Shown here: positions 12,701 through 17,466 of the stretch, piece by piece
Layout: the number at the start of each line of letters is the position of its first letter
How positions within the stretch are numbered: position 1 is the stretch's first letter
Source: Dictyostelium discoideum
Lineage: Eukaryota
Reading direction: 5' to 3'
DNA length: 64,000 nt
NCBI GenBank assembly: GCA_000004695.1
Contig: CM000154.2
Coordinates: forward strand, 5,056,001-5,120,000
Translations under genes and position numbers: made by a program
The notes under the pieces: generated by a model
The model's database searches: none
Told to the model about the DNA's origin: nothing
The model's input: only the letters and a program-made list of their open reading frames with translations

Positions 12701-13029
12701 TTTTAATGTTTAATTTTAAAAAAATATCAAAAAAAAAAAAAGGATTAATTATTTAAAGGGTGAAAAAAAAAAAAATGGAAAAAAAAAAAAAAAAAAGATA
12801 TATTGATTGAAACACAAATAACTATAAAATTCAAAAGAAAAATCTTTAAGTTGGTTTTTTTTTTATTTTAAAAAAAAAATAAAATAAAAATTTTTTTTTT
12901 TATTTTTTTTATTTTTTTTTTATTTTATTTTTTTTTATTTTTTTTTTTTTTTGAGAACAATGAAAATATGGGTGATGAATAATTTGTGCTTTTTACCTAA
13001 TTTTATTAATAATAAATGTTCAAAAATAA

Positions 13030-13155
13030 AATAAAATAAAAATGATAACTTAAATTATTTCCTTTTTTTTTTTTTTTTTTTTTTTTCTCTCATAGATTTA
13101 TTATTTTCACATTATTTAGTAAAATCAAACCAATAAATTCTATAAAATGTTAAGA
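13030..13155. repeat. about 120-bp dispersed repeat, copy 1 (see copy 2 at 13640-13775)
   Basis: Shared block ataaaataaaaatgataacttaaattatttcc-(T)n-ctct.a.agattt...ttttcacattatttagt. The distal 30 bp (aaatcaaaccaataaattctataaaatgtt) is present in copy 2 in inverted orientation. Confidence 0.75.
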
Positions 13156-13639
13156 TAAAAAAAAAAAATAAAAAAAAAATAATAAAATAAATAAAATAAA
13201 AATAATAATAAAAAAACAAATTTGTTTTATTAATTAAAATATATAGATTGATCCTTGGAAAGCAATAGCATCTAACCAAGAAGTTTATGCAACTTTTCTC
13301 TGGATCCAAATGTAAATTTAAACCTTTTATACCTACTGATAAAATGGATTTCCATTGTTTTCAAGTGGAAGATTGTTAATGGTATACCTATCCATAGAGA
13401 TGTACCATCTTGTTATAATATGATAGTCAAATGTAAGGTTGAAATCTATGCTTCTCATTTAAATACGAAAGATGATTTAATTTTCAATGTATTTAGTTCA
13501 GCTTTTTAAAAGAAAAAAAATAAATAAATCCATTCATTCATATTCCATTGTTCTAAAATAAATAAAAAATTAAAAATGAAAATATGAATGAATTTATTTT
13601 TTTTTAAAAAAAAAATAAAAAAAAAAAAAAAATAAATAA

Positions 13640-13775
13640 ATAAATAAAATAAAAATGATAACTTAAATTATTTCCTTTTTTTTTTTTCTCTTAAGATTTT
13701 TTTATTTTTTTTATTAATATTTTCACATTATTTAGTTAACATTTTATAGAATTTGGTTTGATTTTTTTAAGATTT
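13640..13775. repeat. about 120-bp dispersed repeat, copy 2, with a 30-bp subsegment inverted relative to copy 1
   Basis: taacattttatagaatttggtttgatt is the reverse complement of the copy-1 segment apart from a 3-nt indel. Confidence 0.75.
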
Positions 13776-13842
13776 TAAAAAGAAAAAAATAATTAAAAAA
13801 ATAAATAAATAAAAAAATATCAAAATCTGATAAAAATAGAAT

Positions 13843-13882
<40 letters not shown>

Positions 13883-14636
13883 TAATTTGATCATCAATAT
13901 ATTTAATCGCTTCAAACAATAGCTTTTTTTTCTTATAAGTTTATCATATCTTTTTTGGTTTCTCGTTGTTGATTACCATAAAATTAGTGGAATTTTTAGA
14001 AATCTTATAAATAAATTTTTTCTTTTTTTTTTCTTTTTTTTTTCATGAAAAAAATTCAAAATGAATTTAATTTAATTTTTTTAATTTTTTGAAAAAAAAA
14101 ATCATTCAAAAAAAAAAATATAAATTTAAAAAAAATTTTATCATTTTAATCATTTGTTAATCAAATATCAAAGTAAATATTATTATTATTATTGTATAAA
14201 TAATTAATTCAATTTTTTTTTTTTTCTTTTTCTCTCCCCATCTTTTGCAATGTAATAATACAAAAAAAAAAAAAAAAAAAAATAATATAAACAAATAAAT
14301 ATCAGAATCAACCCACACATATAAAAAAAAAAAAAAAACTCGCAGCATATTGGTTTTAAAAAAAAATAAAATAATAATAATAATACCCAAGATTAAAAAA
14401 GAAAAAAAAAAAAAAAAAAAAAAGGAATTTAATAATTAAAATTTAATATTCAAAAATAAAAAATATCATAATCAAATTTGATTTTTTTTTTTTTCTTTAT
14501 TTATTAACAAAACTATTCACACACCATCCGATCAATCTTTTTTTTTATGTTTTTTTTTTTTTTTCAGATATTTTTCCTCTAACTGCAAAATATCCTAATT
14601 TTTTTCAAAAAAAAACATTTTTTTTTTATTTTTTTC

Positions 14637-14667
<31 letters not shown>

Positions 14668-14812
14668 TTTTTTTTTTTTCTAAAAATTTTTTTTGATTAT
14701 TAACTTTATCAAATTTCTTTTTTTTTTTTTTTATAGATTTTTTTTTTTTTTTTTTTAATTTAAATTATTTTCTCCAAATTTATTTTTAATATACAAATAA
14801 TATATATATAAA

Positions 14813-17466
14813 ATGGCTACACCAGTCCAAGCTTCTACTGTAATTCGTGTTAAACCACATCATTATATTCATGTAAGTAATTTTGAATTTAATTTTTATA
14901 ATATAATAATTAAATATTTATATTAATAATTTATATTTTTTTTTTTTTTTATAAATTATTATTATTATTTATTAAATTCTTTTAGGTATTAGATAATAAT
15001 ACAAATGTTACAAGAGTTGAAGTTGGACCACAAACATTTACTAGACAAGATCATGAACGTGTATTAAATCCAACTCCATTACCAATGATTTTGATCCCAC
15101 CAAGACAATATTGTATTATTGAAAACCCAATTATTAGAGATAAAGAAGGTAAATTAGTTGTTGATAAATTCAATCAACCAAAACTCCGTCATGGTGATCA
15201 AGAAATTCGTTTCTCTCAAGATCCATTCCCATTATATCCAGGTGAAGTTGTCATTGCTCAACCAGTTCCATTACAAGTCATCCAAACCAATAGTGCACTT
15301 CGTTTGAAATGTCTTCGTGATTTCGTTGAAGTCAAAGCTGACAAAACCACAGTCAGTCACATTGCTGGTGATGAATGGTTATTCGAAGGTCCAGGTACCT
15401 ATTATCCACGTGTTGAAGTTCAAGTTGTTGAACCAGTTCGTGCAGTTATCATCAAAGAAAATCAAGCACTCAAATTACGTGCTCGTCTCTCATTTGTTGA
15501 CCGTCGTGATGTAGTTCGTCAAGTTGGTGAAGAATGGTTAGTTCGTGAAAGTGGTGCCTATCTTCCAGGTGTCAGTGAAGAAATTGTTGGTTTCATTCAA
15601 GCCTTAGTCTTAACCGATCGTATCGCTTATCAATTATTAGCCACTCGTTCATTCACCGATAGCTTTGGTAAAGTTAGAAAAGCTGGTGAAGAATGGATTA
15701 TCACTCAAAAGGATTGTGATACCTATATCCCAGATGTCAATGAAAAAGTCATTCGTGATATTAAAGCTATCACTCTTACCAATCGTCAATACTGTATCGT
15801 TGAGAATCCAATTGATCCAAAAACCGGTAAAAATAAATTGGGTCACAAAGAACTCCTCCAAGGTGATCGTACTTTCTTCCTTATGCCAGGTGAAAGTTTA
15901 GTTAAAGGTATCCAAAATGTTAATGTTTTATCTGAAGATGAAGCTTTACTCTTAAGTGCCAAAGAGGAATTTGTCGAAAAGAAAGGTACCACCACCATCG
16001 TTCACAAACCAGGTGATCTTTGGATGATTTATGGTCCATGTGATTACATTCCACCAATTCAAGTCGATGTTGTTGAACGTAGAAAGCGTATTCCATTAGA
16101 TGTCAACGAAGGTATCTATGTCCGTGATATTAAAACTGGTAAAGTTCGTTCAGTTCATGGTTCATCCTACATGTTATTACCAAATGAAGAACGTTGGGCT
16201 AAACCATTAGCACCAATCGTCGAAGAACTCCTCAAAAAATCTGCATCACGTGATCAAAATGAAGAACACAATGAATCTGATCGTGATTCAACCAAAGTTA
16301 TCACCTATCGTGTACCACACAATGCCGCCGTTCAAATCTTTGATTACAGAAAGAAAGAAGCTCGTGTTGTATTTGGTCCAGAACTTGTTATGTTAGAACC
16401 AGATGAGGAATTCACTGTTCTCTCTTTATCTGGTAAGATTCCAAAACGTCCAAATCACATTCGTTCATTGGCTCTCTTCTTGGGTCCAGATTTCATGACC
16501 GATTTAATCACTGTCGAAACTGCTGATCATGCTCGTCTCTCACTCAAATTATCTTACAACTGGCACTTTAAGGTCGAGCAAGACAATCCATCCAAATTAT
16601 TCGCCACCTCTGATTTCACTGGTGATTTATGTAAAGCCACTGGTAGTTTAGTTCGTGCCGCCGTCGCTGCCAGCACCTTTGATAACTTCCACAAACACTC
16701 TTCCGATATCATTCAACAAGCCGTTTTCGGTTCAACCGATGGTTCAAGCAATGATTGCTTATACTTTGAAACCAATGGTTTGGTCATCACAAACATTGAT
16801 GTTCAATCTGTAGAACCAGTCGATCAACGTACTCTTGATTCTTTACAAAAATCTGTTCAATTAGCCATTGAAATTACCACCAAATCACAAGAAGCCACTG
16901 CTCGTCAAGAAGCTGAACGTTTAGAACAAATGGCTCGTGGTGAACTTGAACGTCAAAAGATTATCGATGAAGCCAAGAACGAAGAATCTCGTTCCAAATT
17001 GGTCCAATTACAAGCTCAATCAGCTGCTGTCGAATCAACTGGTCAAGCTGTTGCTGAAGCTCGTGCTCGTGCTGAAGCCGCCATCATTGAAGCTGAAAGT
17101 GAAATCAAACAAGCTCGTCTCTCAACCAGAGCCATTGAAATTGAAGCTCTCTCTGAAATTGAAAATCTTAAAGCCAAACATATTGTTGAAATCCAACACA
17201 TCAAATCACTCAACAATCTCGAATTAATTAAAGCCAAAGAAAGTGCTACCATCGAAACTACCAAATTCGAAAACTATGTTGAAGCCCTCGGTTCCGATAC
17301 TATCAAATCAATCGCCCAAGCTCCAGAAGAAACCAAGGCTAAATTATTAGCTGGTTTGGGTCTCAAATCATTCATGATTACTGATGGTAAATCACCACTC
17401 AATCTTTTCGATACTGCCAATGGTTTAATTGCTGATGCTCAAAGATCAGAAGTCGATGAAGAATAA
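14813..17466 (+). CDS. mvpB: major vault protein (predicted 846 aa, fits the beta paralog)
   Basis: Exon 1 is 14813..14872 ([20 protein letters not shown], donor GTAAGT). The intron runs to TTTTAG at 14984-14985. Exon 2 is 14986..17466. The N-terminus matches the vault consensus ([26 protein letters not shown]). Multiple MVP repeat domains are followed by a C-terminal coiled-coil. The paralog call (mvpB rather than mvpA) rests only on the predicted 846-aa length. Confidence 0.85.

Follow-up and report, generated by a model that had tools for sequence, protein, structure and literature searches.

The spacer between a HEAT/Maestro-like gene and mvpB in Dictyostelium discoideum raises the question of how a block of ordinary base composition, bracketed by a repeat, came to lie in DNA that is otherwise almost pure A/T. 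In the stretch analyzed here (64,000 nucleotides, hereafter called the window), the two genes are separated by 2110 bp with 13.8% GC, in agreement with a first, sequence-only reading that had described a near-pure A/T intergenic region of 2.1 kb holding one richer block. The spacer flanks on either side of this single block (13240-13510) have 10.6% and 12.1% GC. The richer island is real, but the value of about 35% GC first given for it was wrong; we measured 28.4% over 13248-13510, which is ordinary exon-level GC for the genome, against a window average of 23.7%. The sequence-only reading had suggested a decayed small mobile element, a site-specific inversion module, or an unannotated exon or upstream open reading frame (ORF) of a neighboring gene. 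Our comparison with related lineages points elsewhere. The island is probably young orphan DNA confined to D. discoideum, a neutral repair scar at the joint of a head-to-tail duplication of the spacer, and we consider it likely that the locus as a whole is the fossil of a DNA rearrangement, with no present role as a transposon, as an inversion switch, or as a functional exon. The features discussed below are listed in Table 1.

Table 1. Features of the HEAT–mvpB spacer, with positions in the window
Feature	Position	Strand	Description or basis
HEAT/Maestro-like gene start	ATG at 12702	-	
Copy A of spacer unit	12951..13155	+	Anchors a1 12951, a2 13008, a3 13039, a4 13104, a5 13123-13154 (ancestral orientation); anchor map, pairwise alignment, BLAST of copies
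AT-rich deletion scar	13156..13247	+	Comparison with L009 3981-4396 and L008 4100-4358
GC-normal island	13248..13510	+	Probable remnant of "exon 2" in a two-exon ORF specific to D. discoideum, with ~130 nt past its stop
77-codon open frame	13276..13509	+	Stop TAA 13507-13509, internal ATG 13420; judged not a conserved coding frame
Low-divergence core, 96 nt	13337..13432	.	Substitution positions in island alignment
Palindromic joint, start of copy B	13531..13595	.	Inverted a1 ~13539-13558, then direct a1 ~13570-13592
Copy B of spacer unit	13570..13775	+	Anchors a1' 13570, a3 13652, a4 13720; anchor map, alignment, BLAST
Micro-inversion of a5, ~30 nt, within copy B	13735..13766	-	Private to the window/L002 lineage
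Spacer unit, mvpB-side continuation	13818..14015	+	Anchors a6 13818, a7 13881, a8 ~13924-13960 (inverted relative to outgroups), a9 13976-14015 (highly conserved)
mvpB start	ATG at 14813		

As a comparison set, we used nine Dictyostelium assemblies and took from each the orthologous HEAT–mvpB spacer (loci L001 to L009), located through mvpB homologues and cluster members. L002 is the window's own lineage, L008 (assembly GCA_054859355.1) and L009 are two other D. discoideum lineages, L006 is D. cf. discoideum ACTFIZ, and L007 is ACTFIY.

The two flanking copies of the repeat are genuine. BLAST aligned 104 nt of them with 85% identity and a score of 108 bits, with background AT-rich matches reaching at most 66 bits. 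The copies have in common a 34-nt exact block, AAATAAAATAAAAATGATAACTTAAATTATTTCC (13029-13062 and 13642-13675), which, by reading of the sequence, continues into about 12 T residues in both. The pair had thus been correctly recognized, but not its extent of about 120 bp, because the duplicated unit reaches further left, to about 12951 in copy A. By anchor map (a1 to a9) and BLAST, the distinctive parts of the repeat were found once in ACTFIZ, twice and head-to-tail in the window, L002, L009, and ACTFIY, and twice in part in L008; no copy was recognizable in L001, L003, L004, or the rest of the 64-kb window. In the window, L002, L009, and ACTFIY, a1 to a5 occur twice in order and in the same orientation (the inverted a5 of the window is taken up below), with periods of 613 to 987 bp. 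The anchors of copy A occur once in ACTFIZ, their order unchanged, and a4, a5, a8, and a9 are each single there; a6 is duplicated in ACTFIZ, around an insert of its own. The recognizable anchors in L001, L003, and L004 are a6, a8, and a9, once each, joined in L001 by a single a1. Since copy A also includes the a6-a8 part in L009, L008, and ACTFIY, the original duplication would have extended at least to a8. On this map, the "120-bp repeat" is evidently native spacer sequence, representing the best-preserved parts of two duplicate copies.

The island itself matched only three of the loci, with 100% identity in L002, 90% in L009, and 88% in L008. It is absent from L001, L003, L004, L006, and L007, five related lineages that keep mvpB and three of which are sister species. 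Divergence from the window at mvpB four-fold sites is similar for ACTFIY (5.5%), L008 (3.8%), and L009 (4.3%), so these values do not show whether D. discoideum proper gained the island or ACTFIY lost it. Other sequences stand at the corresponding place in the two D. discoideum-like lineages. ACTFIY has an AT-rich filler between its head-to-tail repeat copies, and we rejected homology of this filler to the island (local alignment score of 37 against a shuffle mean of 40.7). ACTFIZ bears a frameshifted MOSC-domain pseudogene, called by Pfam on the frameshift-corrected translation (E = 1.6e-7; 31.8 bits; cut-off, 22.7); single unjoined fragments of this insert did not confirm MOSC. We found no relationship between the pseudogene and the island and rejected it as a relative.

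In L008 and L009, the island is preceded by an ATG-bearing, Asn-rich exon 1 and then by a 71-nt intron of the form GTATGT...TATAG. The resulting two-exon ORF is intact in L008, where it encodes 80 aa with a Cys/His-rich tail (KCEFKPFIHCDKMDFHCFQDC), and it is broken in exon 1 of L009 by a 2-nt indel. Its ATG lies in the duplicated, conserved a8 motif GATATGATAAAC. Compared with these two lineages, the window has lost a6-a8, exon 1 with its ATG, and the larger part of the intron together with its 5' splice site; the deletion scar that stands in their place runs up to a 3' splice site that has survived (...ttattaattaaaatatatag), leaving a canonical acceptor at 13247/13248. Within the island, the window also has an extra T at 13284-13286, a +1 frameshift that breaks the spliced frame, and a 6-nt insertion at 13363-13368. 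The idea of an unannotated exon is partly supported as history, given the 3' splice site and the exon and intron upstream in L008 and L009; in the window, the upstream exon is deleted and the frame shifted. As for a 5' untranslated exon or upstream ORF of either neighbor, the left edge of the island is a plus-strand acceptor and not a minus-strand donor, the right edge has nothing stronger nearby than a weak GTATTT, and 1.3 kb lie between it and mvpB; an AATAAA occurs at about 13520.

The 77-codon plus-strand frame is uninterrupted over 13276-13506, is followed by TAA, and translates as first given. It had been described as lacking an ATG, which is an error, as one internal, in-frame ATG is present at 13420. 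It is a different frame from the spliced one. Simulations of 271 nt of island composition gave an open stretch of 77 codons by chance in 1.4 to 2% of cases, which is unusual but not decisive. The frame is open in L009, is broken by a 1-nt deletion in L008, and has a pN/pS of 0.65 to 0.9. Its codon-usage score is -0.24 bits per codon, compared with 0.21 to 0.90 for real exons, and codon usage in all six frames of the island falls below the 5th percentile of real exons (log-odds of -0.04 bits per codon or less in each). The island has diverged by 8 to 10% from L008 and L009, against 3.8 to 4.3% at mvpB four-fold sites in the same lineages. An exon under selection would show a reading frame preserved among relatives, an excess of synonymous change, and host-like codon usage; the island shows none of these. 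A 41-aa ORF on the minus strand gave a pN/pS of 0.14 against L009, from 5 changes only, and its ATG is lost in L008. From these results, we judge that the 77-codon frame is not conserved as coding sequence and is probably a leftover or chance open stretch that evolves neutrally.

Database searches returned nothing that resembled the translated frames of the island. A word-indexed search found no protein homologue of the 77-aa frame or of the 80-aa L008 ORF, and the exact island ORFs were not in a collection of 15 billion proteins. HMMER against 1.84 billion representatives gave a sole match (E = 4e-4), a tandem-repeat junk ORF, and Pfam found nothing above noise in six-frame island peptides. 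A literature search on mvpB yielded nothing concerning the HEAT–mvpB spacer.

The distal 30 nt of the repeat are indeed inverted between the copies: 13121-13153 aligned with the reverse complement of 13735-13766 at a score of 27, compared with a maximum of 18 in 5000 background segments. Anchor a5, which makes up this segment, is direct in both L009 copies and in L008, L007, and L006. Its orientation is fixed per lineage, and two assemblies made independently from the window's lineage agree on it. A second micro-inversion, of a8, is found in D. discoideum and ACTFIY and is independent of the a5 case. The start of copy B forms a palindromic joint (DNA hairpin of -12.2 kcal/mol; z = -2.4), and L009 and L008 have a palindrome similar to that of the window. 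The proposal of a site-specific inversion module is not supported by these observations, as only the window and L002 have a5 inverted and there is no recombinase close by. The locus is like the Hin/Gin/Fim-type switches in having a short segment found in both orientations across sequences. Those are bacterial and phage systems, however, whereas here the spacer has neither a recombinase-domain ORF nor inverted recombination sites, and orientation is fixed by lineage. Hairpin-associated micro-inversions of noncoding DNA are best known from chloroplast spacers. The two independent cases described here (a5 and a8) are like them in their size of about 30 to 35 nt, in lying in AT-rich noncoding DNA, and in being fixed by lineage, but they differ in that the locus is nuclear and has, by eye, only short imperfect inverted repeats with no clear stem arms.

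The comparison shows which lineages have the island, how the copies are arranged and oriented, where the frames are shifted, and that substitutions follow a neutral pattern; from this we infer an order of events, a repair mechanism, and a lack of function in the window's strain. About 600 bp of spacer (a1 to a8/a9) would have been duplicated head-to-tail in the common ancestor of D. discoideum and ACTFIY, after the ACTFIZ split. In D. discoideum proper, several hundred base pairs of filler that was not AT-rich may then have entered at the joint. On its plus strand, this filler would have made up a two-exon ORF consisting of an a8-derived ATG (GATATGATAAAC), an (AAT)n-rich exon, the 71-nt intron, and the island. 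Decay presumably followed, leaving the ORF intact in L008, disrupting it by a 2-nt indel in L009, and gutting it in the window's lineage by the deletion and the extra T. What remains at 13248-13510 would be drifting at or above the synonymous rate. A separate inversion of 30 nt, confined to the window's lineage, probably turned around the distal end of copy B.

As a mechanism, we propose that a break was repaired with errors, or that replication switched templates, in a very AT-rich, hairpin-prone spacer. Events of this kind produce a duplication that carries an insertion and a fold-back palindrome at its joint, along with small inversions. The locus is like known tandem segmental duplications with junctional insertion (template switching or microhomology-mediated break-induced replication) in its head-to-tail copies that are single in the outgroup, in foreign or nontemplated filler exactly at the joint, in the a1 palindrome, and in the small inversions nearby. 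It differs in that the mechanism is read here from the end product alone, and no microhomology is definable in the low-complexity A/T flanks. A further difference is that templated insertions usually come from nearby, whereas BLASTN and TBLASTN found no donor for the island anywhere in the 64 kb. Farther afield, no viral or metagenome contig contained exact 20- or 25-mers of the conserved core, a single 20-mer match in 596 Gb of prokaryote genomes is roughly the one expected by chance, and BLASTN of the island against phage and plasmid collections returned nothing.

It is possible, but unlikely, that the locus instead records a very young micro-gene specific to D. discoideum, arisen de novo or from captured DNA, with the island as exon 2 and with an 80-aa protein or a noncoding transcript as its product, and that this gene is functional in some lineages and was recently lost in the window's strain. 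The intact L008 ORF with its canonical splice signals, the acceptor retained in the window, the exon-like codon usage of exon 1 (+0.48 bits per codon), the 96-nt low-divergence core described below, and an open frame beyond chance at about the 2% level are all consistent with such a gene. However, the ORF is broken in both L009 and the window, the spliced frame has a pN/pS of about 0.5 to 1.2, codon usage in exon 2 is negative in every frame, and most of exon 1 is an (AAT)n microsatellite of variable length, with about 45 units in L009 versus 5 in L008. Moreover, the assemblies' own annotators called no gene at the two-exon ORF, no homologue was found, and ACTFIY, an equally close lineage, lacks the island. 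The ORF does resemble an orphan pseudo-exon or proto-gene in having no homologue in billions of proteins, in being confined to one species, in being intact in one lineage, and in its neutral pattern. It differs in composition, since its GC-normal sequence amid spacer DNA with about 11% GC favors an imported island over one that evolved locally de novo. If true, this minority reading would describe a small, well-dated gene birth and loss within a model species.

We think it very unlikely that the 96-nt core is a functional noncoding element, whether as a small RNA with a defined structure or as a site that regulates the HEAT gene or mvpB in cis, with the rest of the island incidental. Against L009, the core has no substitutions where its flanks have 12%; against L008 it has three, which are found in L008 alone. 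The 17 changes common to L008 and L009 all lie outside it (P roughly 4e-4, uncorrected for having picked the stretch). This invariance could mean constraint, and a hairpin at 13377-13406, with pairing mapped by hand, tolerates an A-to-G change in L008 as a G-U pair. On the other hand, the three private substitutions of L008 amount to the same rate as outside the core, the 6-nt indel falls within it, and the whole element is missing in ACTFIY and ACTFIZ as well as in three sister species that retain both flanking genes. A short recombination or gene-conversion tract accounts for the pattern equally well.

The properties of small RNA genes were likewise missing from the island. Scanned against Rfam at E values up to 10, the entire spacer returned chance-level matches only, those in the island having E = 4.5 and 7.3. 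RNA folding against shuffles was slightly better than expected on the plus strand (z = -1.6) and close to expectation on the other strand (z = -0.3), and clearly better on neither. The DUSE-type promoter consensus WCCCAYAA was unmatched from 8695 to 30911, and there was no CCC run beside the island. The DUSE is a promoter element about 60 nt upstream of small noncoding RNA genes in Dictyostelium, including those for Class I RNAs, snRNAs, and others (PMC7919456); the island has neither this element nor a known RNA family. A vault RNA beside mvpB was also considered and rejected, as there was no match to the Rfam Vault family and the island is missing from five lineages that keep mvpB. A 2026 vault paper names no Dictyostelium vault RNA gene (PMC13100048). 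Taken as a single claim, gene birth and death in one species, in which a duplicated a8 ahead of imported DNA would have given rise to a spliced, Cys/His-tailed micro-gene of 80 aa that survives in L008 and is already lost from the laboratory-type strain, or else a functional core acting as an RNA or cis element, strikes us as a rather improbable history for this locus.

Far less credible is a decayed, non-autonomous mobile element (a TRIM, a solo-LTR-like element, or a MITE) with the two 120-bp copies as its terminal direct repeats, an explanation that is largely refuted. Direct repeats of about 125 to 200 bp around a core of about 480 bp and presence/absence polymorphism among close lineages would suit such an element, and the locus is like a TRIM or solo LTR in these respects and in the noncoding nature of its short core. 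It differs in that the "terminal repeat" is native, single-copy spacer in ACTFIZ, with position and order unchanged. The ACTFIY repeats bracket unrelated filler, and the original unit held a6-a8 motifs that exist in all species. Neither TG..CA ends, inverted termini, nor a primer-binding site was seen by reading the sequence and alignment, and the locus also differs from such elements in the absence of a polypurine tract and of dispersed copies at the sampled loci. No second copy of the island or repeats was present in the 64-kb window or in the nine related loci of 14.6 kb (about 200 kb of Dictyostelium DNA). The transposable families of Dictyostelium include TRE5/TRE3, DGLT-A, Skipper, DIRS-1, DDT, Tdd, and thug. 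Pfam found no reverse transcriptase, integrase, or transposase domain in six-frame island peptides, and ARAGORN found no tRNA gene in the 64 kb that could serve as a target for the tRNA-gene-directed elements. "Decayed" was an apt description of the island, which is truncated and frameshifted, but "small mobile element" is not supported by the loci sampled.

Capture of DNA from an organelle or an extrachromosomal element, such as a mitochondrial insert or a fragment of the rDNA palindrome, as the source of the island would be compatible with a repair scar, a rearrangement joint being a typical place for filler DNA, and the island's 28% GC resembles that of D. discoideum mitochondrial DNA (about 27%), but this source is most improbable given that two plus-strand frames have no protein match in collections including D. 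discoideum proteins, that Rfam and ARAGORN gave no rRNA or tRNA match, and that the acceptor, like the intron upstream in L008 and L009, is of nuclear type.

Read as a repair scar at a duplication joint, the locus would have little functional importance; the odd island and its repeat pair would reflect ordinary structural decay, and a candidate transposon or invertible element can be struck off. Its worth, which is modest, would be as a worked example of how the extremely AT-rich spacers of Dictyostelium evolve. Within about 10% synonymous divergence, a single 2-kb spacer displays a tandem duplication, three unrelated joint fillers in as many lineages, an expanded microsatellite, and two independent micro-inversions of about 30 nt.

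Orthologous loci were collected through the mvpB protein cluster, giving three from D. discoideum (L002, L008 and L009), two from D. cf. discoideum (ACTFIZ, L006, and ACTFIY, L007) and one each from D. citrinum (L001), D. firmibasis (L003), D. dimigraforme (L004) and D. purpureum (L005). Divergence from the window at mvpB four-fold sites was 0% in L002 (also 100% identical across the large mvpB exon), 3.8 to 4.3% in L008 and L009, 5.5% in ACTFIY, 10.7% in ACTFIZ and about 19% in D. citrinum, D. firmibasis and D. dimigraforme. Synteny was lost in D. purpureum (GL870967.1), where the HEAT gene did not adjoin mvpB and the upstream neighbour of mvpB, in the same orientation, was glycogen phosphorylase; the divergent HEAT gene-mvpB pair is therefore specific to the D. 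discoideum group.

The spacer between the two genes is 2110 bp long, with 13.8% GC. The sequence-only reading had picked out a GC-richer island in it, correctly but at too high a figure (about 35%): GC was 28.4% at 13240 to 13510, against 10.6% and 12.1% in the spacer flanks. This 28% is the exon-level composition in the D. discoideum genome. The island was identical in L002 and had 88 to 90% identity in L008 and L009; the remaining orthologous loci gave no match to it, even with a word size of 7. L007, L008 and L009 lie at similar distances from the window, so a gain of the island in D. discoideum proper and its loss in ACTFIY cannot be polarized against each other.

Features of the HEAT gene-mvpB spacer and its borders (window coordinates)
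Feature	Position	Strand	Description
Maestro/HEAT-repeat gene	ATG at 12702	minus	Pfam HEAT_Maestro families, from annotation of orthologous loci
Island	13248-13510		GC-richer block
Palindrome	13531-13595		Directly 3' of island, start of copy B; inverted and direct copy of anchor a1 (CATTCATTCATATT...AATATGAATGAAT)
mvpB	ATG at 14813	plus	Protein cluster containing MVPB_DICDI P54659

The two repeat copies reported to flank the island are real. They share an exact 34-nt block (13029 to 13062 and 13642 to 13675) and have 85% identity across 104 nt, scoring 108 bits in BLAST, where background AT-rich matches reach no more than 66 bits. The extent of about 120 bp did not hold, as similarity reaches further left, to about 12951 in copy A and 13570 in copy B. 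We mapped fifteen short motifs across the loci, ten of them spacer anchors (a0 to a9) and the other five marking exon 1, the island and the joint where the copies meet, and read this map together with BLAST of distinctive parts of the repeat. In ACTFIZ, a4, a5, a8 and a9 were single and a6 occurred twice, flanking a MOSC insert. The recognizable anchors in the three sister species (a6, a8 and a9, and also a1 in D. citrinum) were single. The a1-a8 block was present in two head-to-tail copies in the window, L002, L009, L008 and ACTFIY. The "repeat" is thus native spacer that was duplicated, and does not represent an element's terminus.

The joint between the copies is occupied by the island in D. 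discoideum proper and, in ACTFIY, by about 250 bp of AT-rich sequence unrelated to it (local alignment score of 37 versus a shuffle mean of 40.7). The duplication is missing from ACTFIZ, and at the equivalent spacer position this lineage has a frameshifted pseudogene of 700 bp. Its frameshift-corrected translation matched Pfam MOSC (E = 1.6e-7; 31.8 bits, cut-off 22.7), and single fragments gave no Pfam MOSC match. This pseudogene (L006:4100-4830, GCA_054859235.1), annotated as a 161-aa gene and flanked by duplicated copies of the motif atcaaaatctgataaaaa, is a second gene-like insert at the island's spot, in another lineage and unrelated to the island. The palindrome beside the island gave a DNA hairpin of -12.2 kcal/mol (z = -2.4), and L008 and L009 carry similar palindromes.

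Anchor a5, the 30 nt at the distal end of the repeat, is indeed inverted between the copies (score of 27 versus a background maximum of 18). Copy B carries it inverted in the window and in L002 only; L009 has a single orientation in its two copies, shared with L008, ACTFIY and ACTFIZ. By this distribution a5 is a fixed micro-inversion private to the window/L002 lineage. A site-specific switch, or inversion module, was rejected, since a5 orientation is fixed by lineage and no recombinase was found nearby. A further inversion, some 35 nt long, covers a8: D. discoideum and ACTFIY carry this block in the opposite orientation to that of D. citrinum, D. firmibasis, D. dimigraforme and ACTFIZ. The block (AAAAAAGATATGATAAACTTATAAGAAAAAAAA, about 13924 to 13960) has a core that was identical across all Group-4 loci examined, and the core's conservation in either orientation suggests a functional cis element.

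Upstream of the island, L008 and L009 carry a6, a7 and then the conserved a8 motif in plus orientation, in which GATATGATAAAC provides an ATG. Between this a8 copy and the island lie an (AAT)n-rich tract, a donor site (GTATGT) and an intron of 71 nt whose TATAG end falls exactly at the first base of the island, making the island a putative exon 2. In L008 the two exons make up an intact ORF of 80 aa (MINNNNNNSINAVAGCSGNNNSVVDDDVMMVTNEDLTSQ joined to IGLWKAIASNKEVMQPFPEFKCEFKPFIHCDKMDFHCFQDC, then a stop), which the assembly's annotators had not called as a gene. Exon 1 of L009 is truncated by a 2-nt indel. The (AAT)n tract in putative exon 1 has expanded to about 45 units in L009 (4100 to 4215) versus 5 in L008 (4175 to 4195). 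From the window, everything from a6 through all but the last 25 or so nt of the intron is absent, leaving 92 AT-rich bases (13156 to 13247) plus the acceptor, and an extra T at 13284 to 13286 divides the old exon-2 frame into a part starting IDPWKAIASNQEVY and a part ending MQLFSGSKCKFKPFIPTDKMDFHCFQVEDC before the stop.

The best-supported account, which we consider likely, has five steps. About 600 bp of spacer would have been duplicated in tandem, and the joint would have received imported filler. A two-exon ORF, transient or accidental, would then have arisen, followed in the window's lineage by deletion, frameshift and neutral decay; the micro-inversion would be an independent event. We infer error-prone break repair or replication template switching as the mechanism, the classic end product of which is the combination seen here: duplication, junctional insertion, fold-back palindrome and small inversions. 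The locus is an ordinary lineage-specific structural relic; there is a slight remaining probability that a gene arose and died here within one species. Of the earlier interpretation as a decayed mobile element, inversion module or unannotated exon, only "decayed" survives.

It is unlikely that the island belongs to a putative young micro-gene or transcript that is still functional. The 80-aa ORF of L008 has neither a homologue nor a Pfam domain. The 77-codon plus-strand frame noted earlier is present (13276 to 13506, then TAA), and was wrongly called ATG-less, having one in-frame ATG at 13420. Such an open stretch arose in any of six frames in 1.4 to 2% of simulations of random sequence with the island's composition. 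The frame differs from the spliced exon-2 frame, extending beyond the old stop; L009 keeps it open, and in L008 a 1-nt deletion interrupts it. Its 77-aa translation had no relative among 5.8 billion proteins in a word-indexed search, and full HMMER against 1.84 billion representatives gave one borderline match (E = 4e-4), a tandem-repeat junk ORF. No island frame had a Pfam domain, and no island ORF was present as a called protein in a 15-billion-sequence collection. Nei-Gojobori pN/pS was 0.65 versus L008 and 0.9 versus L009 for the 77-codon frame and about 0.5 to 1.2 for the spliced frame, and island divergence (20 to 25 substitutions per 262 nt) was at least twice the mvpB four-fold rate. 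Six real ORFs from the window served to train a codon log-odds model, under which every island frame scored at most -0.04 bits per codon, versus 0.21 to 0.90 in real 44-codon windows. Together, pN/pS, divergence and codon log-odds show that the island is in no frame a protein-coding exon under selection.

Searches for an RNA product gave only chance-level Rfam matches on the island (E up to 10) and no tRNA, and folding of its RNA did not clearly outperform shuffled sequence (z = -1.6 for the plus and -0.3 for the minus strand). The DUSE promoter motif, whose consensus we take to be WCCCAYAA, was absent throughout the spacer. A near-match that fails this pattern, ACCCACAC, lies at 14311 to 14318, about 500 bp upstream of mvpB, and no RNA-like feature was found downstream of it. 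Many ncRNA genes of D. discoideum have a DUSE about 60 nt upstream (PMC7919456).

Less probable still is a putative functional core of 96 nt (13337 to 13432). This stretch has no substitutions versus L009, compared with a difference of about 12% elsewhere in the island, and all 17 changes common to L008 and L009 lie outside it; it does contain three changes private to L008 and a 6-nt indel. With three sequences compared, the pattern may reflect constraint, a short recombination tract or chance.

We give very little weight to a mobile element. No second copy of the island was found in the 64-kb window at the DNA or peptide level. Viral, metagenome, prokaryote, phage and plasmid DNA gave no match beyond one chance-expected 20-mer. 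Organellar filler as the island's source is just as improbable, and would be compatible with the five-step account.

Over the mvpB-proximal 840 bp of the spacer (13972 to 14812), aligned identity to D. citrinum and to D. dimigraforme was about 78%, although the segment is extremely AT-rich and four-fold divergence is about 19%. Within it, a 40-mer in the a9 region (CCATAAAATTAGTGGAATTTTTAGAAATCTTATAAATAAA, 13976 to 14015) was nearly invariant. Judged by this conservation, the segment, and especially the 40-mer, is probably mvpB regulatory sequence or mvpB 5' UTR.
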